Assembly (NCBI GenBank): GCA_965200315.1
Contig: OZ241362.1
Location: 1,088,001-1,152,000 of the forward strand
Direction: 5' to 3'
Origin: Candidatus Latescibacterota bacterium
Lineage (GTDB): Bacteria; Latescibacterota; UBA2968; UBA8231
DNA length: 64,000 nucleotides
Part shown: positions 11,544 through 29,483 of the stretch, piece by piece
Position numbering within the stretch: position 1 is the first letter of the stretch
Layout of the letters: every line of letters starts with the position of its first letter
Notes under the pieces: model-generated
What the model was told of the DNA's origin: nothing
Databases searched by the model: none
What the model saw: the letters and a program-made list of their open reading frames with translations, nothing else
Program-made: the position numbers and the translations under genes

Positions 11544-12431
11544 ATGGCATCTAATTCCAAGCACCGACTTCCGACCTGGCTCAAGGCCAAAGCCCCAGGC
11601 CACCCCAATTACATCGCCCTAAAAAACCTGCTCGCCGATTTACAGCTTAACACGGTGTGCGAGAGTGCTCATTGCCCCAACATCGGCGAGTGCTGGAGCC
11701 AGCGCACGGCGACCTTTATGATTTTGGGCGATGTTTGTACCCGCAGTTGCGGATTTTGTGCGATCAAGACGGGACGCCCCCAATGGCTCGACGAAGGCGA
11801 GCCTGAGCGCGTTGCCGCTGCCATTGCCCGCCTCGGACTAGAGCACGCGGTGATTACCTCGGTCAATCGCGACGAACTGCTAGACGGCGGAGCACGCATC
11901 TTCGCCCGGACGATCGCGGCAGTACATCACCTTTGCCCCGAGACGAGCGTCGAAGTCTTGATCCCGGACTTCAAGGGCGACTGGCAGGCCCTAGCTACTG
12001 TCCTTGAAGCCGGCCCGGACATCCTCAATCACAACATCGAGACGCCGCCTCGCCTCTACCCCACCATGCGCCCGCAAGCCCGGTACGACCGCTCGCTGGA
12101 GCTCCTCGACCGAGCGCGCAAGATGAGTCCTGCCCCCACCAAGTCCGGCATGATGCTAGGGGCCGGCGAGACCAAAAGAGAAATAGCCCAGAGCATCCAA
12201 GATCTAGCGGATGTCGGCTGCGCCATTCTGACCTTGGGCCAATACCTAAGCCCGTCCGACCACCACGTACCCGTAGAGCGCTTCGTCCACCCCGACGAAT
12301 TCGCGGAGTGGCGGCGTCTTGCCCTCGGCTTGGGCTTTCGCCACGTCGAGTCTGGCCCATTAGTGCGCAGCTCGTACCATGCCGCCAGCCAAGTCGAACA
12401 GGTGCGAGCCGCCACCCCCACTACCTCCTGA
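11544..12431 (+). CDS. lipA: Lipoyl synthase
   Basis: CESAHCPNIGEC, CTRSCGFC and VRSSYHA. Confidence 0.98.
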   Translation: MASNSKHRLPTWLKAKAPGHPNYIALKNLLADLQLNTVCESAHCPNIGECWSQRTATFMILGDVCTRSCGFCAIKTGRPQWLDEGEPERVAAAIARLGLEHAVITSVNRDELLDGGARIFARTIAAVHHLCPETSVEVLIPDFKGDWQALATVLEAGPDILNHNIETPPRLYPTMRPQARYDRSLELLDRARKMSPAPTKSGMMLGAGETKREIAQSIQDLADVGCAILTLGQYLSPSDHHVPVERFVHPDEFAEWRRLALGLGFRHVESGPLVRSSYHAASQVEQVRAATPTTS

Positions 12432-12440
12432 GAGAAGCCC

Positions 12441-13445
12441 ATGAACTTAGAGAGAAAGGCTATATCCCAGTACCTGAAACGCAAAAAACTGCTCGCCGAC
12501 GAGGGCCCGATCCGCGTCCAGAGCTTGAGTGACGGGCTAAAAAACCGGATTTACTACGTAGAGGCGGCCAATCGGGCTTGGATCGTCAAGCAGGCGCACT
12601 CGCGCGCCCAAATCAAGGAGCGCTGGTGGATCGATCGGCGACGCATCTTCGCCGAGAAAAGCTGCATCGAGCGCCTAGGGCAATTTCTCGCTCCCGAGAT
12701 CTTGCCGGAAGTCCTGCTCGAAGACCGCACGGACTTCATCCTCGTGACGACTCCACCTCCGCACAATGCCCTGTCATGGGAGGGCGACTTGGTCAATGGC
12801 CGCATCGATCTGCAAATCGCCGTCCAGTGTGGCGAACTGCTGGCCACTGTCCACAACGAGACCGCCGGCTCGTCCGAGGTCGCCGACGAGTTTGCATCCA
12901 CTAAGGTATTTGAGCAACTGCGCATTGACCCTCACTACAACTATATCACCAACGCCTACCCCGACCTCAAAAAGGCCATTGCCGTCCATACCGATCGCCT
13001 GCTCAACGAGGGGTTTTGCCTCGTCTTAGGCGACTTGCGTCCCCGCAATATATGGGTCGCCAACGGTCATCCCTACTGGGTCGATTTTGCCACCGCCCAC
13101 TACGGTCACCCCACCTTTGACCTCGCCTTCTACACGGCTGATATGTGCGTCAAGGCCATGCAGAACACCGCCCAAAAAGCCGCCTATTTAGAGGCTGTCA
13201 ATGTATTTTGGAACAGCTATTTTCAGAGTGCGAACTACAAAGAGGTCGAGGAAGTCAAACACCAAGCCGTACATGATCTCGGCTGCCTGCTGTTGAGCGC
13301 GACCGATGGTCGCCAGCCGGTCGCGCTCTACGACGAGCGCATCATCGGGCTCTCGCGGCGCATCGCCCAGAGCCTGATTTTGACGGGGTTAGAGAAAATT
13401 GAGGACGTCACCGAGTTCGTCAATCGGACCCTGATCGACGGCTAG
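12441..13445 (+). CDS. APH/5-methylthioribose-kinase-like phosphotransferase
   Basis: IVKQA, FEQLRIDP, LGDLRPRN, VDF and GHPTFDLA. Confidence 0.75.
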   Translation: MNLERKAISQYLKRKKLLADEGPIRVQSLSDGLKNRIYYVEAANRAWIVKQAHSRAQIKERWWIDRRRIFAEKSCIERLGQFLAPEILPEVLLEDRTDFILVTTPPPHNALSWEGDLVNGRIDLQIAVQCGELLATVHNETAGSSEVADEFASTKVFEQLRIDPHYNYITNAYPDLKKAIAVHTDRLLNEGFCLVLGDLRPRNIWVANGHPYWVDFATAHYGHPTFDLAFYTADMCVKAMQNTAQKAAYLEAVNVFWNSYFQSANYKEVEEVKHQAVHDLGCLLLSATDGRQPVALYDERIIGLSRRIAQSLILTGLEKIEDVTEFVNRTLIDG

Positions 13446-14178
13446 CCCGCTGCAAATCTCCGCTGCTAGAGCGGATGTGCGCTGCCATCGCCTGCTGTGC
13501 GGCCTCCGCATCCCGACGCTGCAATGCCGCCAAGATCTGCTGGTGCTCCGCCAGCGATAGTTCGGCTCGGGGGCCAGCCAGCGACGGCTCTACTAAACTT
13601 TCCTTGATCCATTCTTGCAGATAGTTGCGCGTGGTTTCGAGCAAGCTGTAGAGAATGGAATTGTGAGTGCCCCGGGCAATGAGTAGGTGGAACTGCAAAT
13701 CGCTAGCGAGAAAGCGCCCCTCGTCAGAAAGCCCCCCGGCCATGCCAGCCAGCGCGTCGGCAATCGCCGCCAAATCCTCGGGCGTAGCCCGCTCAGCCGC
13801 CAAATAGGCGTTTTGCGACTCGAGCATCATCCGCGTCTCGCTCAGGTCTTGGAGCTTCTTGCCGTCGAGCAAAAACCCCCACTGCAACGCCCGCTCCACG
13901 TATTGGCTCTTGTCGCAGACAAACGTGCCCTCGCCCACGCGACCGTCGAGCAGGCCCATCATGGACAACGAGCGCAGGGCTTCGCGCAGCGAGGAGCGCC
14001 CAACCTGAAAGCGCTTGCACAACTCCCGTTCCGGCGGTAGCCTGTCGCCGGGCTTGAGAACATTGCGCTCAATTAAGTCGGTTATCTGCGCGATAATCTC
14101 GTCACTTACCGATGTGCGCTGCACCGGGCGCATGGCCGCGGCTGCGGCTTTTTTACTAGCGTGGACCAAGGTATTCAA
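13420..14178 (-). CDS. FadR/GntR family transcriptional regulator
   Basis: LKPGDRLPPERELCKRFQVGRSSLREAL wHTH; FCD domain (DLQFHLLIA, EHQQIL). Confidence 0.95.
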   Translation of the reverse strand: MNTLVHASKKAAAAAMRPVQRTSVSDEIIAQITDLIERNVLKPGDRLPPERELCKRFQVGRSSLREALRSLSMMGLLDGRVGEGTFVCDKSQYVERALQWGFLLDGKKLQDLSETRMMLESQNAYLAAERATPEDLAAIADALAGMAGGLSDEGRFLASDLQFHLLIARGTHNSILYSLLETTRNYLQEWIKESLVEPSLAGPRAELSLAEHQQILAALQRRDAEAAQQAMAAHIRSSSGDLQRASRRSGSD

Positions 14179-14199
14179 TCGCCGCTGGCGGAAAAATAT

Positions 14200-14263
14200 T
14201 TGCCGATGGTCTGACCATTAGCTATTTTGTCTAACAGTACTCAACTTAACGTTTTGCTGTCAA
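14200..14263. promoter_or_regulatory. Divergent promoters with FadR-type operator ATGGTCTGACCAT (14206-14218)
   Basis: Palindrome matches the TGGT-N3-ACCA FadR/LldR/PdhR box; it lies in the 17-bp spacer of TTGCCG(14200)-N17-TATTTT on +; opposite strand TTGACA(14263)-N18-TACTGT faces the regulator. Confidence 0.75.
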
Positions 14264-14269
14264 GAGGAA

Positions 14270-14911
14270 ATGCAGATGACACAGATTTTGGACCTCGGCC
14301 CGCGCATAGAGCTGGTCTCCATGGATTCCCACTGCCACCACATCTCCATCGCCCTCTATCGCCCCGGCCCGGATAACGCCCCGGCCTATAAAGTCCACAC
14401 CTACAGCCATCTTCCCGAAGCCGCCGAGCGCATCGCCGGGATCGCGGACGCCATGCAGATACTCGGGGGTATGGAGCAAACCAGCGATGGCCTACTTCGC
14501 TTCCCCTGTGGCCACGCGCATCTGTTCGCCGTCAAGCGGCTCTTCTTAGAGGCTTGTAAGCTGCCGCCAGCGCAACCCATAGAGCCGCGCCCGTTACACA
14601 TTTTCGACAAAAAAGCCAACGCCACCATTGCCGTCGCCAGCCGCGGGCAGGGCTTGTACGAGGCCCACGCCACCGAACAGGCCCTAGGCGCGGAACGCCG
14701 CGTCACCACCATCGCCCGCGGCCTAATCCGCCTCGGCGAAATGGAAGAAGTCGCCGATCAACCCAACCAAGTCCGCTTCGGCTGCGGCCACCCCCACGAC
14801 GCCCTAATCGGCCTCTTGCTCGTCCGCGCCCCCAACGTGCGCGCTGCCGTGCGCGAGGCCGAAGCCATGGCCAACCGCGGCGTGCTCTCAGCCCCTAGCG
14901 CCCAGGAATAA
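14270..14911 (+). CDS. Conserved-looking hypothetical protein with internal duplication (two RFxCGHxH motifs)
   Basis: First gene of the operon, 11 bp before the mtaA-like gene; LRFPCGHAH and VRFGCGHPH. Confidence 0.75.
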   Translation: MQMTQILDLGPRIELVSMDSHCHHISIALYRPGPDNAPAYKVHTYSHLPEAAERIAGIADAMQILGGMEQTSDGLLRFPCGHAHLFAVKRLFLEACKLPPAQPIEPRPLHIFDKKANATIAVASRGQGLYEAHATEQALGAERRVTTIARGLIRLGEMEEVADQPNQVRFGCGHPHDALIGLLLVRAPNVRAAVREAEAMANRGVLSAPSAQE

Positions 14912-14922
14912 AGGAGTCTATC

Positions 14923-15957
14923 ATGACCTCTTCGATGACCAGCCGCGAGCGCGTACTCGCCGCCCTTGCCCGCGAGCCTGTGGATCGCACCCCACTCTGC
15001 AACCCAACCTCGTTGGCCACCGTCGAATTGATGGACCTCGTCGATGCCCCCTTCCCCGCGGCCAATCGCGAGCCGGAGCTTATGGCGCGGCTGGCCGCCA
15101 CCGGCTACACCGAGCTGGGCTTTGACACCATCATGCCAGTCTTCACCATCATTCAAGAGTCCTCGGCCCTCGGGTGCAAAATCCAGTGGGAGCAGAAGGA
15201 CAACTGGCCCACCGTCCGCATGAGTCAGCCGATCTGGGACGAACCTGACGACATCAAAATCCCCGCCGACCTCTGCACCCACCCCGACACGGCCTGCGTC
15301 ACTGAGGCGATCAAAATTCTGCGCAGGGAATACGGCGACGAAGTCGCCATCGTCGGCAAGACCATGGGGCCTTGGTCGCTGGGTTACCACTGCTTCGGAG
15401 TCGAACCTTTTCTGCTGCTGTCGCTCGACGACCCCGGCAAGACCAAGCTCTGCCTCGACCGCATGAAAGAGATCACCATTGAGTTCGGGCAGGCGCAGAT
15501 CGAGGCCGGGGCCGACGCCCTGACCCTGCCCGACCACGCTACCGGCGACCTCGTCAGCGGCGAGTACTATGAGCGCTACTTGCGCGATTTGCACATCGAG
15601 TTTGCCGAGCGGCTTTCGGTGCCCATCATCCTCCACATCTGCGGCCGCACGGTTGACCGCATGGAGTACATCGCCCAAACCGGCATGGCGGCCTTCCACT
15701 ACGACTCCAAGAACACGCCCGAGGAATCCGTCCAAATCGTGCGCGACCGCATCTCGTTGGTAGGCAATATCAACAACCCCGAGACCCTCTTTGCCAAAGG
15801 GCCAGAAACCGTCGGCGCGGAAGTTGTGCGCAACCTCGAAGCCGGCGTCCAGCTCATCGGCCCAGAGTGCGCCATCCCCTTGCAGACCTCCATCGAAAAC
15901 CTCAAAACCATCCCCCGCACGGTGCACGAGTGGCACCGCGACCAAGATCGCAACTAA
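14923..15957 (+). CDS. MtaA/CmuA family methylcobamide methyltransferase (UroD fold)
   Basis: MTSRERVLAAL..EPVDR, LHICG (HxC Zn site), LVGNI and GPECAIP; RBS aaggag. Confidence 0.9.
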   Translation: MTSSMTSRERVLAALAREPVDRTPLCNPTSLATVELMDLVDAPFPAANREPELMARLAATGYTELGFDTIMPVFTIIQESSALGCKIQWEQKDNWPTVRMSQPIWDEPDDIKIPADLCTHPDTACVTEAIKILRREYGDEVAIVGKTMGPWSLGYHCFGVEPFLLLSLDDPGKTKLCLDRMKEITIEFGQAQIEAGADALTLPDHATGDLVSGEYYERYLRDLHIEFAERLSVPIILHICGRTVDRMEYIAQTGMAAFHYDSKNTPEESVQIVRDRISLVGNINNPETLFAKGPETVGAEVVRNLEAGVQLIGPECAIPLQTSIENLKTIPRTVHEWHRDQDRN

Positions 15958-15970
15958 AAGAAGAGACCCT

Positions 15971-16726
15971 ATGGCAGACATCACCGACATCGCCAACGAA
16001 TTTATCCACGACGAGATCGAAGAGTTCATCGAGCGCGACGAAGAGCGCGAGCGCATCATCAATCTCTTCGCCCAAGCCAGCGAGCAGATGCAGAACATCG
16101 CTGCGGCTCTCATCGACGGCGACCACCTAACGGTTGACGAATTGACCGGCCAAGCCATTGCCGCGGGCGTGGAGGCCCTCGAAGTCATGGACGACGGACT
16201 GATCGCCGGCATGGCCATCGTCGGCATCAAATTCCGCGAAAACTTTATCTTCGTCCCCGAAGTGTTGGCTTGCGCCCGCGCCATGAAGGCTGGCATGACC
16301 CACATCGAACCCATTCTCTCGGCCTCGGGCGTCGATCCCATCGGCATTGTGATCATGGGCACGGTCAAGGGCGACCTTCACGACATCGGCAAAAACTTGT
16401 GCATCATGATGCTGCGCGGGGCCGGTTTCGTCGTCCACGACCTAGGCGTAGATACCTCCGAAGACGAGTTCATCGACGCCGTCGAAGAGCACCAAGCCCC
16501 GCTCTTGGGCATGTCGGCCCTGTTGACCACCACCATGCCCAACATGGGCAAGACCATCGAGGCCTTCATCGACGCCGACTTGCGCGACGACGTCAAAATC
16601 ATGGTCGGCGGCGCGCCCGTGACTCAGGAATTTGCCGACGACATGGGGGCCGATGGCTACGGCAAGGACGCCCTCGCCTGCGTGGCCTTGGCCAAGGATT
16701 TGCTGAGCGAAGTTGAGGACGAGTAG
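15971..16726 (+). CDS. Corrinoid (B12-binding) protein, MtbC/MttC-like
   Basis: FVPEVL cap domain, GTVKGDLHDIGKN (DxHxxG), SALLTTTM and MVGGAPVT. Confidence 0.95.
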   Translation: MADITDIANEFIHDEIEEFIERDEERERIINLFAQASEQMQNIAAALIDGDHLTVDELTGQAIAAGVEALEVMDDGLIAGMAIVGIKFRENFIFVPEVLACARAMKAGMTHIEPILSASGVDPIGIVIMGTVKGDLHDIGKNLCIMMLRGAGFVVHDLGVDTSEDEFIDAVEEHQAPLLGMSALLTTTMPNMGKTIEAFIDADLRDDVKIMVGGAPVTQEFADDMGADGYGKDALACVALAKDLLSEVEDE

Positions 16727-16730
16727 CGGT

Positions 16731-17092
16731 GTGCAGATTGTCTTTCGAGCTATGAAAGAGGCCCCCAATGGCAACCCTCTAACGGGACGGTCAGCGAGAA
16801 CATTGGGCGTTCGCATCTGCGGGCCGCGAATCGACATCCCCATTCGCGCCGGAAGGGTCCACCCCCAGACAGGCGGAATGTCTGTAACTATACGATACTA
16901 AAGAGAAGTGGGTGAAATATGAGTGATGCCCTCCAGTGCAAGCGATCTCTGAGAAGCGGATCTGATTTACATCCGTTGGAAATATGCAGGCTGAATTTGC
17001 CCCTCAAACAGCTTGCATCATGGGGCGGCTTGGTTGTTTGCGATCAGTCGTCGCACACAAAAATCAAATGGCCTGAATTAAAGGAGCTATAG
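16731..17092 (+). pseudogene. Degraded two-gene cassette; first gene resembles a Tse2-like ADP-ribosyltransferase fold protein with internal deletion
   Basis: VFRAMK...GRSARTLGVR..DIPI..GRVHPQTGGMSV, then a shifted frame YDTKEKWVKYE*; an overlapping second short ORF at 16919-17092; AT-richer than flanks. Confidence 0.4.
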
Positions 17093-17127
17093 GCTCAACG
17101 CAGATGCGCCCAGCCTCACAATAATCC

Positions 17128-19005
17128 ATGACCCAAATCGACCCCGCCGAATACCAAAAGCGCCTCGACCGCCTGTCGGGCATCCTCGCCGGCATCGCCA
17201 CCCACGCCGATGTGCAGGCCACCTTTCGCTGCCCTTATAAGAACCGCTTCGACCAATGCACCGCCCACTTCGGCTGCCGCAACCAGCGCAAGCCGCAAAA
17301 GCCGGGCGAACTGCTCCAATGCGGCAGCGACGACCAGCTCGACTACCGCTCGGCTTGGGAGTCGGCCCAACGCCCGGCCACGCCTAACCGCGGCCACATC
17401 CGCTGCGACAGCACCTCCTACCCGCTGTCCACCGGCGGCACCCTCTTCGACTACGCGGATCAGCTCGGCACCCGCGTACCCACTTCCTGTGGGCGCACGG
17501 GCCATTGCCACGAGTGCATCGTCGAAGTAACAAGCGGCGCGCAAGCCCTCAGTGCGCCAACGCCGGCCGAGGACTTCCTCGGCGGTGAATTCCGGCTCGC
17601 CTGCCAAGCCAAAGTCGAAGACGCCGATGTCGATATCGAGTTCGCACCGCTTTTTCGTACGCCCCGGATACTGACCCACACCGTGGAGCGCCCCGCCGAG
17701 CTCGATCCCGTAGTCCAGCGGCGCGGGCAAACCATCTACTACGGCGACGAGGAAATCGACCAATACCGCGGGCATCTCTACGGCCTAGCCATCGACTTGG
17801 GCACCACCACCATTGTCCTCGACTTAGTCGATCTGGAGACGGGCCAGAGCGTGCATTTGAGCGCGTTTGAAAACCCGCAGCGCTTTGGCGGCAGCGACAT
17901 CATGCACCGCATTTCCTACGATGGGCAACACCCCGGCGAGCTGCGCCAAGCCCTCGTCAAGGCACTCAACCACGAGATCGCTGATCTGTGCCGGCGCGGC
18001 GGCTTTGTGCGGCAGGAGATTTACGAGATCGTGGTCGCTGGCAACTCGACGATGCGCGACATCCTCTTCCGCCTCGACGTGCAGAGCATCGGTCAAAAGC
18101 CCTACAAATCGCGCATTGAGCACGAATACCTAAGCGGCGAACGCACCGCGACCAGCCTAGTCGAAAAGACCCGTCGCCTCGGCCTGAAGGCCAATCCCAA
18201 AGCGCGCGCGTACTCGCTGCCGCTGATCGCCAGCCACGTCGGCGCGGATGTAGCCGCCGACTTAGTCGCCGTTGATATGGACCTTTCCAGTGAGAGCGCA
18301 ATGCTGGTCGATGTGGGCACCAACACCGAAGTAGTAGTCGCGCACCAAGGTCGCCTCGTCGCGGCTTCCTGCCCGGCCGGCCCGGCCTTTGAGGGCGGTG
18401 GCATCACCTATGGGATGCCCGGCTGCGACGGAGCCATTGAATCTATCCGCTGGGACGGCGCACGTTGGCAGTGGGAAACCATTGGCGACACCACACCAGC
18501 GGGGCTGTGCGGCTCCGGGCTAATCGACCTCCTCGCCGAGTTGCGCCGCCACGATTTAATGACCCCCAAGGGCGTCTTCGCGGCCAAAAAGCGCCTGTTT
18601 GAGCTAGTACCCGAGCACGGCATCACCTTCTCGCGCCTCGACGCTTCCAACCTAGCCCAAGCCAAAGCCGCCAATTTCTGCGGTCAGTACATCGTCTTGC
18701 GGACCTTGGGCCTCAATCCGGGCGATGTGCAACAGCTCTACCTCGCCGGCGGCTTTGCCAACTACGTCGATGTTCAAGCCGCCATCGACATCGGCTTTTT
18801 GGCCCCCGTGCCCACAGCGCGCATCGCCAAGGTGGGCAATGCCGCCGCCCAAGGGGCGCGCGAAGTGCTGCTCTCCGCCGGCAAACGCGCCCGCATCGAA
18901 GCGCTGGCCAAGCGCATTGAGCACGTCGAATTAGAGACGACCCCCGACTTTTTTGAACTCTTCGTCGAGGGCTGCCAATTCAAACCCATGCCCGCCGCAC
19001 TTTAA
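17128..19005 (+). CDS. ASKHA-domain corrinoid reductive activator (RamA/RACo, DUF4445) with 2Fe-2S domain
   Basis: SCGRTGHCHEC...RLACQ ferredoxin; AIDLGTTT, DVGTNTE, CPAGPAFEG, GLCGSG and YLAGGF. Confidence 0.93.
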   Translation: MTQIDPAEYQKRLDRLSGILAGIATHADVQATFRCPYKNRFDQCTAHFGCRNQRKPQKPGELLQCGSDDQLDYRSAWESAQRPATPNRGHIRCDSTSYPLSTGGTLFDYADQLGTRVPTSCGRTGHCHECIVEVTSGAQALSAPTPAEDFLGGEFRLACQAKVEDADVDIEFAPLFRTPRILTHTVERPAELDPVVQRRGQTIYYGDEEIDQYRGHLYGLAIDLGTTTIVLDLVDLETGQSVHLSAFENPQRFGGSDIMHRISYDGQHPGELRQALVKALNHEIADLCRRGGFVRQEIYEIVVAGNSTMRDILFRLDVQSIGQKPYKSRIEHEYLSGERTATSLVEKTRRLGLKANPKARAYSLPLIASHVGADVAADLVAVDMDLSSESAMLVDVGTNTEVVVAHQGRLVAASCPAGPAFEGGGITYGMPGCDGAIESIRWDGARWQWETIGDTTPAGLCGSGLIDLLAELRRHDLMTPKGVFAAKKRLFELVPEHGITFSRLDASNLAQAKAANFCGQYIVLRTLGLNPGDVQQLYLAGGFANYVDVQAAIDIGFLAPVPTARIAKVGNAAAQGAREVLLSAGKRARIEALAKRIEHVELETTPDFFELFVEGCQFKPMPAAL

Positions 19006-19007
19006 CC

Positions 19008-20618
19008 ATGTCGCTGCCCGCGCTCCATCCACCCGCCCGCTACTCGGGGGCTTGGCAGAAGAAACCCCTGCGCCATTTGCTCAAAACCACCGACACCTTC
19101 GTCCACATCGTCGAGTTGGTGACCTCGCGGGGCTTAATCACCGAGCGCGACGGCCGCAAGGTCCTCGCCCTCGCCCGCCGCCTCGCCGAGCACCCGCAAT
19201 TCCACGCTCTGAGCATCACCGATAACCCCGGCGGCAACGCCATGATCAACCCGGACACCCTCGGCACCGACCTGATCTCGCGCGGCCAAGACGTCATCAT
19301 CCACCTCTCCTGCAAGGACTGGAACCGCAACGCGCTGCAAGGCCGCGCTTGGCAACTTGCCAGCGAGGGCTTCAACAACATCCTCGCCCTTTCTGGCGAC
19401 TACCCCATCAGTGGCTATCAGGGCACAGCCGGTGGGGTCTTCGACCTCGACTCGGTCGGCCTGCTCGAAATGTTCGCCGCCATGAACGCTGGCTTAAAAA
19501 TAAAAAAGGGCAAGCGGACTCAGCGCATGGAGGCCACGGATTTTTATCTAGGGGCCGTAGTCAATAACCACAAGCGCTACGAGCGCGAGGTCATGCCTCA
19601 GTACTTCAAGCTGGCCAAAAAAATCCACGTTGGCGCAGCTTTTGTCATCAGCCAGATCGGCTACGACGCGCGCAAGCAGGACGAGTTGCTCAAATACATG
19701 GCCTTGTGCGACCTCGAGGTCCCGGTCATCGCCAACGTGTACGTGCTCTCGCGGCCGGCGGCGCGCTTCTTTCACAAGGGTCACATTCCCGGGGTTGAAG
19801 TCACCGACAAATTGATGGCCGTCGTCGAAAAGCAGGCCCAAGCCAACGACAAGGGGCGGGCGTTCTTCTTGGAACTGGCCGCTAAGCAGTGCGCCATCGC
19901 CAAGGGCCTCGGCTACCGGGGAGCTTATCTCGGCGGGCACCTGCAATACGGCGACTACGAAAAAATCCTCGCTCTCGCCGCGACCTACTCGGAAGACGAC
20001 TGGCGCGACTTCGCCAAGGAACTCTGCTTTTCCTTTGCCGACGAATTCTACTTTTTTGAACCCGATGGCGACACCGGCCTCAGCTCAACGACCATCAACC
20101 GCGCGTACCTCGCCTCCAAGGAGCAAGCCGCCCTCCACCAAGCACGCGGCCGCCTGCCGCTGAGCTACAAGTTAAACCGCCGCATCCACGACCAAGTATT
20201 TGCGCCTGAGAGCGCGGGTTTTCGCACCGGTGCTCATCTCGCCCGCGCCCTAACCGAGCACCCCAAGGCCGCCAAGCTCGTCCACGCGGCCGAGCACGCG
20301 CTCAAAATCGCTGCTTTTGACTGCCGCGACTGCGGCGATTGCTCGCTGCCAGACATCGCCTACTTGTGCCCGGAATCGCAGTGCGTCAAAAACCAGCGCA
20401 ACGGCCCCTGCGGCGGCACACGCCAAGGCAAGTGCGAAGTCGGCGACAAGGACTGCATTTGGGCACGCGCGTACGACCGCCTCAAAGCCTATGGCGAAGA
20501 GGAACAGATGCTCGGCGACGCAGCCGTTATCAAGGACGCGGACTTACAGGGGACCAGTGCTTGGACCAACGCCTTTTTGCAAAAAGATCACCGTGGGAAG
20601 AAGAAAGATTCGCGGTAA
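19008..20618 (+). CDS. Methylenetetrahydrofolate reductase (MetF-like) fused to C-terminal MetV-like Cys-rich domain
   Basis: SITDNPGG, HLSCKDWNR, ILALSGD and DLDSVGLL; C-terminal CRDCGDC..CPESQCVKNQRNGPCGG..GKCEV..DCIW. Confidence 0.9.
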   Translation: MSLPALHPPARYSGAWQKKPLRHLLKTTDTFVHIVELVTSRGLITERDGRKVLALARRLAEHPQFHALSITDNPGGNAMINPDTLGTDLISRGQDVIIHLSCKDWNRNALQGRAWQLASEGFNNILALSGDYPISGYQGTAGGVFDLDSVGLLEMFAAMNAGLKIKKGKRTQRMEATDFYLGAVVNNHKRYEREVMPQYFKLAKKIHVGAAFVISQIGYDARKQDELLKYMALCDLEVPVIANVYVLSRPAARFFHKGHIPGVEVTDKLMAVVEKQAQANDKGRAFFLELAAKQCAIAKGLGYRGAYLGGHLQYGDYEKILALAATYSEDDWRDFAKELCFSFADEFYFFEPDGDTGLSSTTINRAYLASKEQAALHQARGRLPLSYKLNRRIHDQVFAPESAGFRTGAHLARALTEHPKAAKLVHAAEHALKIAAFDCRDCGDCSLPDIAYLCPESQCVKNQRNGPCGGTRQGKCEVGDKDCIWARAYDRLKAYGEEEQMLGDAAVIKDADLQGTSAWTNAFLQKDHRGKKKDSR

Positions 20619-20694
20619 GACTGCATTGTTGAAACCAGAGTAAACAGTGGGCTGTCTTGCGAGCTTGACGTAGCACAAACCATCAAATGAATAG

Positions 20695-21111
20695 ATGGCA
20701 GCCATCCACCACATCCGGTTATCAGTCTCCGATCTAGATACTTCGACGCGATTTTACTCGCCCTTACTAGAAGAGCTTGGATTCCGAAAGTTGTCCCCGC
20801 GGCTGACAGAGAAGGGCGAGATCGACAGATTGCGATTTGAGAGGAATGGGATGATCCTGCTGATCGGCCACACTACAGAAGCAGGCCGCTACGATAGGGC
20901 CAAGCCGGGGCTACACCATATCGCCTTTTCTGTCGATTCACGGGCAGAAGTTGAAAAAATCTACGAATACGAAGAGGTAATCAAGAACCTAGAGCATGTG
21001 AATGTCGAAGACCCACCTATCGACTGTCCAGAATACGGCGAGGGATACTACGCGACTTTCTTCTTCGACCCCGACGGTATCAAGCTCGAAGTAACGTACA
21101 CCCCAGAATAA
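20695..21111 (+). CDS. VOC/glyoxalase family protein
   Basis: IHHIRLSVSD, GLHHIAF and YYATFFFDPDGIKLEV; AT-richer. Confidence 0.9.
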   Translation: MAAIHHIRLSVSDLDTSTRFYSPLLEELGFRKLSPRLTEKGEIDRLRFERNGMILLIGHTTEAGRYDRAKPGLHHIAFSVDSRAEVEKIYEYEEVIKNLEHVNVEDPPIDCPEYGEGYYATFFFDPDGIKLEVTYTPE

Positions 21112-21132
21112 CTTGGAGCGGAAAACACTAGC

Positions 21133-21852
21133 ATGATTCGCGACGTGCTGAATGATCTTTTTTCCAAAAAGTTCCTTGATGACCACTTAGATGAATGGGG
21201 AATCGTAGAGCACTGTGACCATCTGACCTCGTTGGGCTATTCGACCACGATTACTCCTAGGACGATCTATGAGGCAGTTGACCGCAGCGCAGATGTAATT
21301 GTGACTCATCACGATGCCTGGAACTTCATGTTTGAGCAAAGGGATGAGGTTTGTGGCTTACTCCAAGACAAAGGCTTAACGCATATCTGGGCTCATCTGC
21401 CGTTGGATCTAGCAGACTTTGGAACATCGTCCACACTGCTCACCAAAATCGGGTGTCACCATGTTTATAAACCCTCAGCATGTGAGGCTCGCATCGGCAA
21501 ACTGCCTACCCCGACGAGCTTCCAATCGGTTTGCTCGACATTGAATTCGCTCCTTCAAGAGCAACCACGCAGCATGTATGACGCGAATCGAACAGTCCAA
21601 CGTATAGGTTGCGTCACTGGAGCCGGTATCTACACCAGCTACATTCGGGACGCCATGTCCCATGACATCGACATGTACCTAACTGGAGAAACCAATCTTT
21701 ATCTACTCGAATACGCTCGGCACCACGAACTCAACGTGGCGGTGTATTCCCACAACTACACAGAGTTGCCCGGCGTTGAGACGTTCGCACATAGGCTCTG
21801 TCGTTCTCTAAAACTTGAGATGAAAGGACACTTGGGGGACGCCCACTTCTAA
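21133..21852 (+). CDS. NIF3-like dinuclear metal-centre protein
   Basis: IVTHH, HLPLD, VTGAG, YLTGE and HNYTE. Confidence 0.88.
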   Translation: MIRDVLNDLFSKKFLDDHLDEWGIVEHCDHLTSLGYSTTITPRTIYEAVDRSADVIVTHHDAWNFMFEQRDEVCGLLQDKGLTHIWAHLPLDLADFGTSSTLLTKIGCHHVYKPSACEARIGKLPTPTSFQSVCSTLNSLLQEQPRSMYDANRTVQRIGCVTGAGIYTSYIRDAMSHDIDMYLTGETNLYLLEYARHHELNVAVYSHNYTELPGVETFAHRLCRSLKLEMKGHLGDAHF

Positions 21853-22129
21853 TCGCAACCGAGAGGCATCGTCCTCAGAAACTAAGGCCCTGTGGTTGGA
21901 ACAATAAGAAGCTGGCTATGTTGGCTCCTCGTCCAAAAGTATGAGGACAACGGGGTTGACCAAGGGCAGGGGAGGCGATACCTTAAAAAAGTTTGGCTTC
22001 GTGGACGAAATGGCGGCGATTTTCTTGCCAGTAAATCGCATCCCATCCATAGAAGCCTATCTTATTTAACTTCGTGCAACAACGCCCGTCCTAAATCACT
22101 AATCCACGTACAAACAAATACGGAATCCA

Positions 22130-23158
22130 ATGAACATCCCCGGTACGGACCGTCCCTTCGTCGTCATCGGCGAAAACATCCACACCACCCGCGTCGTCTT
22201 GCGCAAGGGCAAGCTCATCGGCCCAGACCCCCAAGGCGTCGAATCAGTGCGCTTCCGCGATGCCAATAACAAGCGCCGCTTCCTCCAGATTCCCGAAGCA
22301 GTTAAAACAACCCAAGACTACGAGGAAGGCCGCGTCAAATACCTCAAAATCGCCGTGCAACAAGCCATGCTCGGCAACGTGGATGCCCTCGACTACCTCC
22401 GTCGCCAAGTACAGCGCCAAGAAGCGGCCGGCACCGATTTCCTCGACCTCAATGTCGATGAGATATCCCTCAAGCCCGCGGAGCGGCAAGAGGCCATGCG
22501 CTGGTTGGTACAGGCGGTATCGGCCATGTCGCAGACGGCACTGGCCATTGACTCCTCCCAGCTAGACACCCTCGCCGTCGGCCTCGAAGCCGGTGACGAC
22601 CACCCCCAGCGCCTACTGCTCAACTCCGCGTCCTTGGAGCGGCCTGAAGCCCTAGATCTGGCCAAACGGTACAACGCCCAAGTCATCATCACTGCGGCGG
22701 GCGAGTCCGGTATGCCACAAAATGCACAAGAACGGATCGATCACGCCCGGCAGATGGTCGACAAGGCCCTCGCCTTGGGGCTGTCGCTCGCCGACTTGTA
22801 CATTGACCCCCTGATCTTCCCCATCTCGGTTGATGCGCAATTCGGCCACCACGCTTTTGACGCCATCCGCCAACTGCGCGGCGAGTTAGGTGCCGAAATC
22901 CACATCACCGGAGGCTTCTCCAATGTCTCCTTCGGCCTGCCCTGTCGCCACTTGATCAACGATGTCTTCCTGCTGCTGGCCGTCGAAGCCGGTGCCGACA
23001 GCGCAATCATGGATCCGACTACCACCTCACTATCCGACCTCTTTGCCTTCGACCGCCAAGCCCGGCCCTACCAGCTAGCTGAGGATATGTTGCTGGGCCG
23101 AGACGAGTACTGCGCCGCCTTCCTGCGAGCCTATCGCAAGGGCGAACTCGCAGCCTAG
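22130..23158 (+). CDS. Methyltetrahydrofolate:corrinoid methyltransferase (pterin-binding, AcsE/MetH-folate-domain-like)
   Basis: IGENIH, FLDLNVD, AIDSS, LLNSAS, YIDPL and GFSNVSFGLP. Confidence 0.9.
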   Translation: MNIPGTDRPFVVIGENIHTTRVVLRKGKLIGPDPQGVESVRFRDANNKRRFLQIPEAVKTTQDYEEGRVKYLKIAVQQAMLGNVDALDYLRRQVQRQEAAGTDFLDLNVDEISLKPAERQEAMRWLVQAVSAMSQTALAIDSSQLDTLAVGLEAGDDHPQRLLLNSASLERPEALDLAKRYNAQVIITAAGESGMPQNAQERIDHARQMVDKALALGLSLADLYIDPLIFPISVDAQFGHHAFDAIRQLRGELGAEIHITGGFSNVSFGLPCRHLINDVFLLLAVEAGADSAIMDPTTTSLSDLFAFDRQARPYQLAEDMLLGRDEYCAAFLRAYRKGELAA

Positions 23159-23261
23159 TCCGTTGGTCATTTTTGGCCTTATCGCGTAGATTAAAAACTG
23201 AGCTTAGGGCGACCTTTGTCGCCATCGGTCCCGTAGATCGCCAACGGAAAGGAGGGTCAAT

Positions 23262-24188
23262 ATGCGAAACGACAGAATCTCTATTCTTGCTGCTCTGCTG
23301 TCGTTGACCCTCACCGCCTGCGGCGAAATATCCGATACCGAGTCGGTCGCCGAGTCGGTCGCCAATTTGAGCAAGGATCACACCGTCCACTCATTGGGCG
23401 GCCAACGCCCAGCCTTCTTGGTCCTCCCAGCCGATCACGACCCCAAGACGCCTATTCCGCTCGTCCTCAGTCTGCACGGCTTCACCAGCCATTTAGCTGA
23501 GCACGACCGCTATTTTGGTCTCTCGCAGCGGGTGAATGCTGAGCACTTCGCCCTCATTATGGCCAACGGTACGCACGACCCCGATGGCAGGCGCTTTTGG
23601 AACGCCACGGACTTCTGCTGCGACCTCCACAACACTCAGGTCGATGACGTGCAGTACCTTTCCGGGCTATTAGAAGAAGCCGCCACGCATATCGCCGTAG
23701 AGCGCATCTTCGTCCTCGGGCACTCCAACGGCGGCTTTATGTCCTACCGACTCGCCTGCGAAGGCATCCCGGGCTTAGTCGCCATTGCTAGCCTCGCCGG
23801 TACTTCCTTTAGCGACCCCTCCCGTTGCGCTTTTGCATCCCCAGTCTCGGTGCTGCAAATCCACGGCACAGCCGACAAGGTCATAGCCTACGACGGCAGC
23901 ACGGGTGAGCATGAGTACGCAGGCGCACAAGAAGTCGCGCTGCGCTGGGCGGCACTCGCCCGCTGCGACCTCACCGATCCAGAAACCCTTCCTCCGCTCG
24001 ACCTCGACCAAAAACTCGACGGCCCCGAGACGGTCCGCGCCCGCTACCGCACGGGCTGCCGCAACGACGTCACCATCGAGTTGTGGACCATAGAGCAAGG
24101 CGCGCACGTACCGAACTTTGCGCCCGACTTCGGCCAACGCTTGCTCAAATGGCTGTTCAGCGACTCCCGCGCCGACACCCTGTCCTAA
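23262..24188 (+). CDS. LpqP/PHB-depolymerase-like esterase lipoprotein
   Basis: Lipobox LTAC; LHGF, WNA..CC, VDDV.YL, GHSNGGFM and IHGTAD. Confidence 0.85.
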   Translation: MRNDRISILAALLSLTLTACGEISDTESVAESVANLSKDHTVHSLGGQRPAFLVLPADHDPKTPIPLVLSLHGFTSHLAEHDRYFGLSQRVNAEHFALIMANGTHDPDGRRFWNATDFCCDLHNTQVDDVQYLSGLLEEAATHIAVERIFVLGHSNGGFMSYRLACEGIPGLVAIASLAGTSFSDPSRCAFASPVSVLQIHGTADKVIAYDGSTGEHEYAGAQEVALRWAALARCDLTDPETLPPLDLDQKLDGPETVRARYRTGCRNDVTIELWTIEQGAHVPNFAPDFGQRLLKWLFSDSRADTLS

Positions 24189-24203
24189 GACGGAGACAAG
24201 CCT

Positions 24204-25193
24204 GTGTCCCTTTTCCTTCAGCGCCTTAATGACCCGCGGCCTCTCTTGTACGACGGTGGTTTTGGCTCCGAGCTTTTCGCCCGTCACATCGAACTAACCA
24301 ACTCCACCCTCGCCAACGAAAGCCATCCAGAGGCGGTCGTCGATATCCACACCGACTATATCACCGCAGGTGCTGACTGCATTGGCACCAACACCTTTGT
24401 CGCCTCTGAGTTACACCTCGCCATGGCCGATAAAGACCCGACTCAAGCCGGTGCGCTGGCCCGACGCGGGGCCGAACTGGCACAGCGCGCCCGGGAGCGC
24501 TGCGGACGTGACGTCTTCATCGCCGGCTCCATCGGCCCCTCCCCCGGGGCCATCGAAGCCGACGCAGGCAGTACGGATTTCGGCATCGCCAACGACAAGG
24601 TCCGCGCTGCACATCAGCGCATCATCGACGCGCTCTGCGAAGGCGGGGTCGATTTTTTCTCCGTTGAAACCCAGTTTTCAGCCGTCGAAGCGGCCATGGT
24701 CTGCGACATCGCCCGCCAGACCGGCCTGCCCATTGCCGTCAACCTCGCGCTCAAATACACGCAAGACCGCAAAAGCAAGCAGGTCGTCTATCGCACCGAT
24801 TGGGGACATTCGGTCGCCGACCTGTTGGACATGCTCGCCTCGGGCCAATACTCCAGCGGCGACAACCTCCTCGACCACGTCCACCTCGTCGGGATCAACT
24901 GCGGCGCTGAAACTCGGCGCAGCGAGCACACCGGCATGCCATACGCCCTCCACGGCGTTGAGCAGCTTAAGGCCGCCATGCAGGAGCGCGGCCTCGACAA
25001 GAAGCTGATGACCTATCCCAACGCCGGTATGCCGCAGCTCAACAGCGCCCTCCGCACCATCTACTCGCAAAGCCCCGAGGAAATGGCCACGTACGTCCCA
25101 TATTTAGCGGCGGCCGGCGTCCAGATCATTGGCGGCTGCTGCGGCACCACGCCGGAGCACATCCGCGCCTTTCGCCAAGCACTCGACTCATGA
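24204..25193 (+). CDS. Homocysteine S-methyltransferase domain protein (stand-alone MetH Hcy module / BHMT-like)
   Basis: YDGGFGSEL, TNTF, GINCG, YPNAGMP and IIGGCCGTTPEHI. Confidence 0.92.
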   Translation: MSLFLQRLNDPRPLLYDGGFGSELFARHIELTNSTLANESHPEAVVDIHTDYITAGADCIGTNTFVASELHLAMADKDPTQAGALARRGAELAQRARERCGRDVFIAGSIGPSPGAIEADAGSTDFGIANDKVRAAHQRIIDALCEGGVDFFSVETQFSAVEAAMVCDIARQTGLPIAVNLALKYTQDRKSKQVVYRTDWGHSVADLLDMLASGQYSSGDNLLDHVHLVGINCGAETRRSEHTGMPYALHGVEQLKAAMQERGLDKKLMTYPNAGMPQLNSALRTIYSQSPEEMATYVPYLAAAGVQIIGGCCGTTPEHIRAFRQALDS

Positions 25194-25471
25194 CTCAATA
25201 CCAAGTCCTTTACTGGCGCGACATCCCCGTGCAGATCAAGCTCTTTGCCGGCCGCCGGCCGAGTTCACACACCCTACCCGCCCGCTTCCAACTCGCGATC
25301 GACCGCATCGCCATGCAGGAAGGGCTCGTGGGCACCGACGCCTATTTGGACCAGTGGCATTGGTCCGCAAAGCAAGAGCGCGCCGGCACCCCCGAAGACG
25401 TGCTGCAGACGCTCTTGCGCGAAACCGAAGAGGAAGGCGACCGCATCCTCGCCGCGTATAAACAATCGTGA
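25190..25471 (+). CDS. Virulence-factor-domain small protein (associated with split methionine synthases)
   Basis: [32 protein letters not shown] signature; ATGA overlap with the upstream gene. Confidence 0.8.
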
Positions 25472-27342
25472 TTTTCTACGACAAAGAGTACCAAGTCATC
25501 GTCGTCGGCGGCGGCCACGCCGGCACCGAGGCCGCACTCGCCGCGGCGCGCATGGGAGCCGAGACCCTGCTCCTGACCATGAACTTGGACACCATTGGCC
25601 AGCTATCCTGTAACCCGGCTATCGGCGGGATCGGCAAGGGGCACATCGTCAAGGAAATCGACGCGCTTGGCGGCCAGATGGCCGTCAACATCGACCGCAC
25701 CGGCATCCAATTCCGCCGCCTCAACACCTCGCGCGGGCCAGCCGTGCGCGCCTCGCGCGCCCAAGCCGACAAAAAGGACTACCAATTCGAGCTGAAGTAC
25801 ACCTGCGAACAGCAAGAGCATCTCGACATCCGCCAGGGCCTGATGGAGAGCTTGCTAATCGAGGATGGAGCCGTCCAAGGCGTCGGCATCAAGGGCGGCA
25901 TCGCCTACCGCGGGCGCACCGTCATCCTCACGACCGGCACCTTCCTGCGCGGCAAAATTCACGTCGGCGATTTTTCTTATAGCGCCGGGCGCACCGGCGA
26001 GACTGCCGCCGAAAAAGCCGCCGAGGGCTTGGTCGCGCTCGGCTTTGAAACCGGACGCCTCAAAACCGGCACTCCACCGCGCATCAACGGTCGCACCCTC
26101 GACTTTGCCGCGTTTGAAGAACAGCCCGGCGACGACCCACCGCGCCCCTTTTCATATTCGGTGCCCAAAATCACCCAGCCGCAAATGCCCTGTTGGATCA
26201 CCTACACCAACGCCCACACCCACGAAATCGTCCAAGAGAACCTGTCGCGCTCGGCCATGTACAGCGGGCGCATCGAGGGCATCGGCCCGCGCTATTGCCC
26301 CTCCATAGAGGACAAAATCGCACGCTTTGCCGACAAGGAGCGGCACCAAGTTTTCGTCGAGCCAGAGGGGCGGCGCACCCTCGAGTTTTATCTCAACGGC
26401 CTGTCGATGAGCCTGCCGGAAGCCCTGCAACCCCAGATCGTGCGCTCCCTGCCCGGCCTCGAACGGGCCGAGATTCTGCGCCCGGCGTACGCGGTCGAAT
26501 ACGATTACGCCCCGCCGACCCAACTCTACCCGCACCTAGAGACCAAGCGCGTGGCCAATCTCTTCTTCGCCGGCCAAATAAACGGCACCACTGGCTACGA
26601 AGAAGCTGCGGCCCAAGGGATTATGGCCGGCATCAACGCCGTGCTCAAGGCTCGCGGCGACGACCCGCTCGTGCTCACGCGCGCCGATGCGTACATCGGC
26701 GTCCTAATTGACGACCTCGTGACCAAAGGTACGCTGGAGCCGTACCGCATCTTCACCTCGCGCGCCGAGCACCGCCTGCTCTTGCGCGAGGACAATGCCG
26801 ATGACCGCCTGATGGCCAAGGGCCGGGCGCTAGGGCTGATCGACGACGACCTGTGGCACCAGTTTCAAACCAAGCAGCAACAAGTCGCCGCCGAGCGCGA
26901 ACGCCTACAGCACGAGCGCGTCAAACCGACCGAAAAGGTGCAAGAGGTCTTGGCGCGCCAAGGTACCACTCCCATCACTGAATCGACCTCGCTCGCCGAG
27001 TTGCTGCGTCGCCCCCAACTCAACTACGACCACCTCTGCGAATTCGCCCCACCACCACAGCCTCTCTCGCCAAACGCGGCCGAACACGTCGAGGCCGAGA
27101 TTAAATACGCGGGGTACATCAAGCGCCAAGAGACCCAAGCGCAAAAGCTCAAGCGCCTCGAATCCCTGCGCCTGCCAGTCGATTTTGACTTCGCCGCTTC
27201 CAGCCTGAACATTTCAACCGAGGCGCGCCAAAAGCTCGCGGCGATCCGCCCACAGACGCTAGGACAGGCGTCGCGCATTTCCGGGGTCTCACCTGCGGAC
27301 CTCGCTTCGCTCATGGTCTTCTTGCACGCCCGCTCCCAATGA
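25468..27342 (+). CDS. mnmG: tRNA U34 carboxymethylaminomethyl modification enzyme MnmG/GidA
   Basis: [39 protein letters not shown] and [17 protein letters not shown]. Confidence 0.98.
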
Positions 27343-27477
27343 CGATAAAACGATGAGTACATTATACAGCCCAATCGGGGCGTGTATGAGCTTGACGCTG
27401 TTTCGCACCTTTGTTAAGCTCGATTGGTTCGCTCCTGAGGCGTTCATTGTATCATTACCAACTCCACAACCGAAGGA

Positions 27478-28535
27478 GTGAATGCTATGGGCAATAGTCT
27501 AATAATTCAGCAAGTCATAGATGGACAACGAGACCTTGGATTATTGAAAGGAAACTGCCGAGAAGTTATTAAAACGATACCGGACGATAGCATTGACTGC
27601 GTAATAACGTCGCCTCCCTACTGGCAATTAAGAGAGTACGACATAAGTGAAGACACAGATCAGCTAATAGGCACAGAGAAAACTCCCGAGGAATACGTAA
27701 ATCACATTACAGAAGTTTTTAAGCAAATCAAAAGAATTCTGAAAAAGACGGGATCGGTATGGCTAAATCTCGGAGACAAATACCACAATAAAAATCTAAT
27801 GGGGATGCCTTGGCGCGTTGCTCTGGCTATGCAGGACGATGGTTGGATTTTGCGAAACGATGTAATTTGGTCGCAAATGAAGGGGACGCAAAGTGCTAAA
27901 GACAGATTGCGGGATATGTACGAACATATTTTCCACTTTGTAAAAAACAAGAAATACTACTACGACGCAGATAGCATAAGAATTAAACCTACGAAACTCC
28001 CTAAAGTAACAGGTAACGAGACTATATCAGCGACTGGTGTGAGTGGCAAAAAATACCGTCAGCAAATTATCGACTCGGATGCCTTAACTCAAAGCGAAAA
28101 AACGCCGCCATAAAAGCACTCGACGAGACGCTAGGAAGAATTCGCTCCGGCGAACTCGTCGATTTCAGAATGACAATTCGAGGAACGCAACGCACGTACC
28201 ACAGCAACAACGGTAAAGTGAGTGGACGAGCGAAAGAACTGGAGAATAAAGGGTATTTTATTTTAACGAGTAAATCCAAGGGATACATTCCATCCGATAT
28301 ATGGAATATAGTGCCAGAGGATGAGTGGAGGAAAGATGCCCATTACGCCGTGTTTCCCATTGAATTATTGCAAATTCCGATCAAAGCTACCAGTCGCAAA
28401 AAAGGTATAGTTCTCGATCCATTTATGGGAACTGGCAGTACCCTAGTCGCCGCTAATCAAATTGAATTGAGTGACGACTACATAAAGGTCGCTAATCAAA
28501 GATTAGAAAAAATCCAGTTGAGTTTCAGAATGTAG
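27478..28535 (+). pseudogene. Beta-class N4-cytosine DNA methyltransferase, frameshifted
   Basis: TSPPY in ORF 27478-28113; HYAVFP and VLDPFMGTGST in 28170-28535; one extra A in the A6 run at 28097-28102 restores EKNAAIKALDETLGRIRSG...FRMTIRG. Confidence 0.85.
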
Positions 28536-29390: not shown

Positions 29391-29417
29391 CGAATTAAGG
29401 TGTCCGGGTTGCTATAT

Positions 29418-29457
29418 AAAAAACGCCCCTGCACGGCAACAGCAGTGCAAGAGCGTC
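29418..29457 (-). terminator. Rho-independent terminator
   Basis: Minus strand acgctcttgcac-loop-gtgcaggggcgt followed by a T-run. Confidence 0.7.
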
Positions 29458-29483
29458 CAAGCGCGGCGCGGCGAAAGCAACTT

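Follow-up and report, generated by a model that had tools for sequence, protein, structure and literature searches.

In Phaeobacter inhibens, MetH is split into three parts and is reactivated by a RamA-like protein and DUF1638, as described in the accessible text of Price et al. 2018 (PMC5764234). In Ruegeria pomeroyi, MtgC and MtgD are shared by methionine synthesis, with MtgE, and by glycine betaine demethylation, with the MttB-family protein MtgB, and MetF2 is strongly induced (Mausz et al. 2025, PMC12478193, in the accessible text). It is only lately that such hubs, which join methionine synthesis to methyl catabolism, came to light in aerobic marine bacteria, always with donors of the MttB type for betaines. 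Here we describe a gene cluster in a 64,000-nucleotide stretch of DNA (the window; G000:C1:1088001-1152000), which is part of a 5.36-Mb genome on a single contig and whose closest relatives in the genome collection are metagenome-assembled genomes (MAGs) labelled Candidatus Latescibacterota. We lean, with modest confidence, towards reading this cluster as a modular cobalamin methyl-transfer hub in which a methyltransferase of the MtaA/CmuA family (the MtaA-like protein) and an unnamed protein of 213 amino acids (aa), encoded directly upstream of it, form the donor side. The hub logic itself, put forward in a preliminary description of this DNA, has already been published for MtgBCDE, as the accessible text of PMC12478193 makes clear. 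What appears to be undescribed is the donor-side module: literature searches returned no description of a pair formed by an MtaA-like protein and the 213-aa protein, and no MtaA-type module is mentioned in the main text or searchable supplements of PMC12478193.

The unity of this pair was examined by comparative genomics. Eighty related loci were collected with the 213-aa protein as query, and their gene content was read within the flanks. An MtaA-like gene lies directly downstream of the 213-aa gene in 78 of the 80; of the two exceptions, one has the MtaA-like gene 8 kb away (L065) and the other has none that was found within the flank (L049). In a sample of 151 genomes of the phylum, for which two score tables were compared by eye and in which kin are not independent, 109 genomes carry the 213-aa protein and 108 of these also carry a high-scoring MtaA-like gene (at least 573 bits), the single exception being a fragment at a contig end. 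Conversely, all 108 genomes with a high-scoring MtaA-like gene carry the 213-aa protein, and it is absent from the 13 genomes that have a lower-scoring MtaA-like paralogue (306-355 bits) instead. The MtaA-like and 213-aa proteins thus belong together as a conserved unit, and this unit is linked to the corrinoid protein and its activase: corrinoid and RACo genes are present in 56/80 loci, mostly directly after the pair. A pterin methyltransferase gene lies within the flank in 15/80 loci, a homocysteine S-methyltransferase (HcyMT) gene in 30/80, and a PF13769 gene in 28/80, directly after the HcyMT gene in the loci that were read. One Poribacteria genome has the pair by itself, flanked by mraW and by Rieske/cytochrome b genes, with a corrinoid-RACo-MetFV-pterin-PF13769 cluster at a distance of about 4.4 Mb, so the pair is a detachable module. 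MAGs that carry the pair are labelled Latescibacterota, Poribacteria and Gemmatimonadota, and the best holders of the window's DNA among public sequencing runs include records labelled 'sponge metagenome'.

Gene identities in the window were assigned by Pfam and NCBIfam profile searches, with bit scores read against curated cut-offs. All eight proteins that had been listed for the cluster are present, co-oriented on the plus strand and downstream of a divergent regulator. The features are as follows.

13420-14178, minus strand: regulator with GntR (66 bits) and FCD (92 bits) domains by Pfam, divergent from the operon
14206-14218, no strand assigned: operator-like palindrome ATGGTCTGACCAT, read from the sequence
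14270-14911, plus strand: unnamed 213-aa protein with two Cys-x3-His pairs, no Pfam or NCBIfam match
14923-15957, plus strand: MtaA/CmuA-family zinc methyltransferase with URO-D fold (URO-D 208.8 bits; TIGR01463 249.8; NF004889 257.6)
15971-16726, plus strand: corrinoid protein of MtgC/MtbC type, 251 aa (B12-binding_2 70.9 bits and B12-binding 95.1 bits)
17128-19005, plus strand: RamA/RACo-type ATP-dependent reductive activase (Fer2, an N-terminal 2Fe-2S ferredoxin domain, with Raco_middle and RACo_C_ter)
19008-20618, plus strand: methylenetetrahydrofolate reductase (MTHFR, MetF) fused to a PF12225 MetV-like C-terminal domain, 536 aa (MTHFR 46.5 bits; DUF5981/PF12225 92.4 bits)
20695-21111, plus strand: VOC/glyoxalase-fold protein (Pfam)
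21133-21852, plus strand: NIF3-like protein (Pfam)
22130-23158, plus strand: pterin-binding methyl-tetrahydrofolate:corrinoid methyltransferase, the MtgD or split-MetH module (Pterin_bind 71.7 bits; NF005719 199 bits)
23262-24188, plus strand: esterase- or polyhydroxybutyrate-depolymerase-like alpha/beta hydrolase (weak Pfam hydrolase matches; NF050058 97 bits, below cut-off)
24204-25193, plus strand: stand-alone HcyMT, the MtgE or split-MetH module (S-methyl_trans 191.4 bits)
25190-25471, plus strand: PF13769 'Virulence_fact' protein, 93 aa (64.7 bits), overlapping the HcyMT stop and the mnmG start

We propose that the single corrinoid protein of this cluster would be held as Co(I) by the RamA/RACo activase and would exchange methyl groups with three methyltransferase modules. 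In module (a), the pterin-binding enzyme would link the carrier to methyl-tetrahydrofolate (methyl-THF), beside the MetF-MetV paralogue; in module (b), HcyMT with its small PF13769 companion would make methionine; and in module (c), the MtaA-type zinc methyltransferase would work with the protein bearing the two Cys-x3-His pairs, a physical partnership that we infer. Module (c) would take a methyl group from a small compound and load it onto the corrinoid, the likeliest candidate donors being a methyl thioether or thiol (dimethyl sulfide, DMS; methanethiol; methylmercaptopropionate, MMPA) or a methyl halide, and the methyl group would then pass from the carrier to homocysteine or to folate. 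The divergent GntR/FCD regulator would probably repress the operon through the palindrome, which lies in the promoter spacer.

Modules (a) and (b), the carrier and the activase are, judged by their profile matches, the known split MetH or MtgCDE system: PF02574, PF00809, and PF02607 with PF02310 were found on separate genes (191.4, 71.7, and 70.9 with 95.1 bits), and the MTHFR and PF12225 domains in one protein. The corrinoid protein probably starts at 15971 rather than at the open reading frame (ORF) start at 15791, carries the D-x-H-x-x-G motif (GDLHDIG), is the sole strong B12-binding match in the window genome and, among the NCBIfam models, matches MtgC_2 best, with 202 bits where the cut-off is 370. 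The interval that separates the corrinoid gene from the activase gene (16727-17127) is an insertion hot spot in the lineage: it is 401 bases long here, shrinks to about 20 in some relatives and reaches 3 to 6.6 kb at other loci (L011, L017, L028, L036); that the 401-base spacer might be a repeat was ruled out, as it is unique in the genome. Three genes missing from the earlier list sit within the cluster, namely the VOC, NIF3-like and esterase-like genes, which occur in 3/80, 2/80 and 3/80 related loci, respectively. All three are variable inserts, and the VOC and NIF3-like genes probably do not belong to the system. The PF13769 protein is a constant companion of HcyMT or of the pterin module. 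Its AlphaFold2 (AF2) model has a predicted local distance difference test (pLDDT) score of 95.6, with no Foldseek match at E<=1e-3 and a best VIA Z of 4.0, and a full-text literature search for PF13769 found no paper. The gene mnmG follows the PF13769 gene in 10/80 loci, with the stop and start overlapping in the window.

The MtaA-like protein belongs to the MtaA/CmuA family, scoring 249.8 bits with TIGR01463 (cut-off 235.4) and 257.6 bits with NF004889 (cut-off 244), and it remains below the equivalog cut-offs of NF040654 (228.9 against 400 bits) and NF041608 (196.4 against 600 bits). It is one of two URO-D genes in the window genome, the other being hemE-like (388.7 bits). Its best solved relative is Methanosarcina mazei MtaA (4AY7, 179 bits), in which LHICG and PGCGI align with LHICG and PECAI of the MtaA-like protein. 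The HxC and distal C of these stretches are the zinc ligands of MtaA, and H238, C240 and C316 are invariant across 14 MtaA-like sequences. Across the related loci the MtaA-like protein is 76-97% and the corrinoid protein 80-98% identical; conservation is weaker for the 213-aa protein (54-90%), the activase (58-96%) and HcyMT (55-93%). Homologues of the MtaA-like protein more than 80% identical to it include, by the source names in a protein search, MAGs of Acidobacteriota and Bryobacteraceae.

No characterised enzyme is nearer to the MtaA-like protein than MtaA, which shares its HxC and C stretches, and this also favours an alternative in which the pair is an acceptor branch. There it would demethylate a methyl-corrinoid loaded from methyl-THF and methylate a small thiol, sulfide, selenide or metalloid, which would serve detoxification or the production of methylated sulfur compounds. 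The window genome has a pterin methyltransferase that could load the carrier, and methyl-sulfur or methyl-selenide metabolism has been proposed for bacterial clusters with MtaA-like proteins (Kountz and Balskus, PMC10418091, in the accessible text). We consider an acceptor branch unlikely, mainly for what is found in the genomes with a compact version of the cluster, described below.

The 213-aa protein is an internal duplication with one Cys-x3-His in each half (C80/H84 and C172/H176), and its homologues begin at the second Met (14276), giving 211 aa. C80, H84, C96, C172 and H176 are invariant in 11 sequences of the protein, down to 55% identity; more distant homologues mostly retain the Cys-x3-His pairs, one of those examined having lost both. 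The Cys and His residues of the pairs presumably bind metal. No Pfam or NCBIfam family was matched, and relaxing the Pfam search to E<=10 brought up nothing beyond a zinc-binding DUF at 7 bits. The AF2 model (pLDDT 79.8, predicted template modelling score 0.79) has two alpha/beta repeats. Foldseek found nothing in the PDB at E<=1e-3, the ESM Atlas gave no usable match, and the best hit of a VIA-align wide search (Z 6.7 over 88 residues, a segment of urea carboxylase) is within the noise range of the tool. Complex predictions of the MtaA-like and 213-aa proteins gave run scores of 0.81, 0.00 and 0.00, which weigh neither for nor against a complex.

A profile search of 1.84 billion representatives retrieved 271 clusters at E<=1e-3 for the 213-aa protein, and among the best 150 of these 271 the homologues span 61-359 aa. 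When six homologues were scanned against Pfam, the sole extra domain was in one gene call that resembles a frameshift. Two apparent fusions were rejected: frames of 724-725 aa over the 213-aa gene in two genomes are spurious, a GHL10 gene lying upstream in another frame, and a 345-aa database protein joining the 213-aa protein to the start of a URO-D protein has an Arg/Pro/Ala-rich linker and looks frameshifted. At locus L096 (G025:C1, 7820-8455, minus strand), a 29%-identical homologue of the 213-aa protein occurs without an adjoining MtaA-like gene, its neighbours being a gamma-glutamyltranspeptidase gene and a fragment of an NAD-binding oxidoreductase gene.

The rest of the genome was searched for other methyltransferases. 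The MttB family (PF06253) has no match anywhere in the 5.36 Mb, which upholds the earlier statement that an MttB- or MtgB-type methyltransferase is lacking. No MetH activation domain (PF02965) was found in the window genome, the control search matching in 7 named genomes, and the RamA-like activase (Fer2 with Raco_middle and RACo_C_ter) stands in its place. As for a separate metH or metE, these searches returned only a YitJ-like fusion and three short, low-scoring MetE-like paralogues. The second HcyMT and the second MTHFR of the genome occur only in that fusion, a 639-aa frame in which the MTHFR spans G000:C1:56162-57046; the clustered MetF-MetV is therefore a paralogue. From these genome-wide searches it follows that the clustered genes are the genome's only MetH-type methionine synthase. 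The proposed partition of methyl groups between methionine synthesis and folate-linked oxidation fits this picture, the clustered MetF-MetV being a paralogue like MetF2 of Ruegeria. The MetE-like paralogues (PF01717; G000:C1:2514228-2515250, 3447229-3447825 and 2573089-2573592) fall well short of every NCBIfam methionine-synthase cut-off, the best score being 134 bits against 406. One possibility is that they are enzymes of the core-MetE type with a corrinoid protein as methyl donor, in which case they would be further clients for the hub.

The direction of methyl transfer was considered with a compact arrangement of the cluster, HcyMT-PF13769-213-aa-MtaA-corrinoid-RACo, for which 15 genomes were searched. 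FolP is present in 15/15 and a long MetH (frames of 1254-1287 aa) in 14/15; a stand-alone pterin methyltransferase and MttB were each found in 0/15. A corrinoid carrier needs two half-reactions, with one methyltransferase for loading and another for unloading. Since these genomes offer only HcyMT, an established unloader in Phaeobacter and Ruegeria, and the MtaA-like pair, the pair is the most economical loader. The donor role that the preliminary description gave to the MtaA-like enzyme thus stands in part: no other corrinoid loader was found in any of the 15 compact genomes, which fits it, and the direction of transfer is what we infer from that result. For an acceptor branch, the same genomes would offer no source of methyl groups, as no loader was found in them, unless the 213-aa protein itself loads the carrier or HcyMT runs in reverse.

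A reverse flow would have HcyMT move a methyl group from methionine or S-methylmethionine to the carrier, with the MtaA-like enzyme or the folate module receiving it, and would amount to a route of methionine demethylation. The compact arrangement, which holds just the HcyMT and MtaA-like methyltransferases, would allow it, and methyl transfers from thioether to thiol are near isoenergetic. Nevertheless, we know of no PF02574 enzyme that loads a corrinoid from methionine, and the same HcyMT module is required for methionine synthesis in Phaeobacter and Ruegeria (accessible text of PMC5764234 and PMC12478193), and we regard reverse flow as highly improbable.

It could also be that the pair has no substrate of its own and serves the split methionine synthase in an accessory role, for example as a replacement for DUF1638. 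It might then prime or re-methylate the carrier, insert metal or dock the modules. DUF1638 (PF07796) is needed for methionine synthesis in Phaeobacter, per the accessible text of PMC5764234, and a search of the 5.36 Mb at E<=1 did not find it; moreover, the corrinoid and RACo genes mostly follow the pair directly. However, when modules separate, the 213-aa gene stays with the MtaA-like gene and not with the corrinoid gene, a full MtaA-type catalytic site at 76-97% identity exceeds the needs of a scaffold, and 14 of the 15 compact genomes also encode the complete MetH. We therefore think an accessory role quite improbable.

Turning to regulation, the regulator had been called FadR, and only the generic GntR and FCD architecture of that assignment was recovered. 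Against the two FadR equivalogs it scores 23.9 bits (cut-off 189) and 23.2 bits (cut-off 249), and it scores better with the NanR, LldR and PdhR models, all below their cut-offs. By domains and scores, this GntR/FCD protein is a member of the FadR subfamily in the broad sense and not a FadR orthologue, leaving no basis for control by a catabolic FadR. Upstream of it lie genes for lipoyl synthase and an APH-family phosphotransferase (11544-13445), with this synteny kept in 33/80 loci.

The reported FadR box, on the other hand, is real as a sequence: the palindrome ATGGTCTGACCAT lies within the 17-nt spacer between TTGCCG (14200-14205) and TATTTT (14223-14228), promoter hexamers that are our own reading. 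The regulator is present and divergent in 38/80 related loci, and the palindrome was examined in 44/80, comprising these 38 and six loci without the regulator. A 13-base (A/T)TGGTC(T/A)GACCAT lies upstream of the 213-aa gene at a similar distance in 37 of the 38 regulator loci, among them loci labelled Gemmatimonadota, Planctomycetota and Poribacteria, and the 38th has Ns. The consensus is found in none of the six loci without the regulator, one of which matched a loose pattern only, with an unrelated sequence. This is good phylogenetic footprinting evidence for a putative regulator-operator pair, and the conservation of the palindrome fits repression. The inducibility claimed earlier is an extrapolation from the conserved operator and is not supported. 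The stated absence of a known B12 or S-adenosylmethionine riboswitch agrees with an Rfam search at E<=1 over 12000-28000, which gave only a spurious microRNA match. A second conserved element, GCTGTCAAG(A/G)GGAA, lies at about 14248-14262, some 30 bases downstream of the operator, and persists even at loci with a more distant start codon (L053, L055, L079); it may be part of a 5' untranslated region or a second regulatory site and not only a ribosome-binding site.

RNA-library contigs of one study extend over all 30 bins, and one of them, 7,464 bases long, crosses the divergent regulator. A second study yielded short RNA contigs of 117-282 bases that match, at 95-99% similarity, the MtaA-like, corrinoid, pterin, HcyMT and mnmG genes. 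These contigs show no operon and are compatible with expression.

Several points weigh against the hub with the pair as its donor side. Methanogen MtaA, to which the MtaA-like protein is closest among characterised enzymes, works on the acceptor side, where it transfers methyl groups from methyl-corrinoid to coenzyme M. The 15 compact genomes are MAGs, mostly of one lineage and perhaps representing three independent cases, and absence in MAGs is no proof. Linkage of the pair is looser at its margins: in two genomes of family f6 a 65%-identical MtaA-like gene lies about 0.7 Mb from a divergent 213-aa homologue, and other, more distant MtaA-like paralogues stand alone. A consensus promoter scan did not flag the TTGCCG and TATTTT hexamers, and the RNA-library contigs of the region are indistinguishable from DNA carry-over. 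Lastly, the support for the donor reading comes from comparative genomics.

Within the donor-side reading, a more specific proposal can be made, which we offer tentatively as possible rather than probable. The pair would be a new two-subunit, metal-dependent methyltransferase with which oxygen-tolerant bacteria of many phyla move methyl groups to a B12 protein from DMS, methanethiol, MMPA or a methyl halide, and it would be the enzyme of corrinoid-dependent demethylation of DMS and MMPA. Such corrinoid-dependent, oxygenase-independent demethylation was described physiologically decades ago; to our knowledge, genes have never been assigned to it. In a bolder variant of this proposal, the 213-aa protein itself would be a new kind of substrate-activating (MT1) subunit.

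Beyond the cluster, the ORFs at 27478-28113 and 28170-28535 are one N6_N4_Mtase DNA methylase split in two, and a NotI-like restriction endonuclease at 28503-29390, on the minus strand, is convergent with it. The G+C content is 0.47 at 28001-30000 and about 0.60 elsewhere. An acquired restriction-modification system whose methylase is broken or split could account for the region 27478-29390.

The cluster shows the same hub as that recognised in marine bacteria; its donor-type module is another one, which is widespread and strongly conserved. If the substrate of this module were identified, sponge-associated bacteria and, to judge from the names in the protein search, Acidobacteriota would gain a further route in the sulfur or halocarbon cycle, and a protein family that has no fold or family match would be given a function. 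As the parts are small and soluble, reconstitution can address the question directly.

Compared with MtgBCDE and the split MetH, the cluster has in common the separate corrinoid protein, pterin methyltransferase and homocysteine methyltransferase, the Fer2-bearing RamA/RACo activase, a second MetF beside the pterin module, the lack of a MetH activation domain, and one carrier that would be shared by methionine synthesis and methyl catabolism. It differs in that the donor module is of the MtaA/CmuA family with a 213-aa partner and not of the MttB superfamily, in that no DUF1638 was found and MetF is fused to a MetV-like domain, and in that all parts are in one regulated cluster, in another lineage (relatives labelled Latescibacterota).

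The methanogen methyltransferases MtaA, MtbA, MtsA and MtpA likewise have a URO-D fold and work with a small B12-binding protein and an activase that depends on ATP, and the HxC and C stretches of MtaA align with those of the MtaA-like protein. MtsA takes methyl thioethers as donors. The MtaA-like protein differs in scoring too low for the MtaA and MtbA equivalogs (229 and 196 bits, with cut-offs of 400 and 600), in being paired with the 213-aa protein and in being coupled to homocysteine and folate. We know of no 213-aa partner in the methanogen systems and of no evidence for coenzyme M here. MtpA is an MtaA-family enzyme that acts on methyl thioethers, according to the accessible text of 10.1101/548461.

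The type 1 mlp clusters of obligate anaerobes have at least two distinct MtaA-like proteins (Mlp2 and Mlp3) together with a corrinoid protein and Ram/RACE, often lack a folate methyltransferase and have a proposed methyl-sulfur or methyl-selenide substrate (PMC10418091, in the accessible text). In contrast, the present cluster has one MtaA-like URO-D gene, together with the 213-aa partner and HcyMT, and does not belong to that type.

In aerobic methylotrophs, the Cmu pathway for chloromethane (CmuA, CmuB and MetF2) likewise combines an MtaA/CmuA-family methyltransferase and a corrinoid domain with a pterin-type methyl-corrinoid:THF methyltransferase and a MetF paralogue, with methyl flow into folate. 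A tblastn search of a plasmid collection for a CmuA-like relative gave, among the best 25 of 26 records, hemE or URO-D-family matches at no more than about 27% identity and no cmuA, the presence of the cmu plasmid in the collection being unconfirmed. CmuA is a fusion of a methyltransferase and a corrinoid domain, whereas here the two are on separate genes, and the Cmu pathway has neither a homocysteine branch nor the partner protein. In its logic only, the cluster thus resembles a disassembled Cmu pathway.

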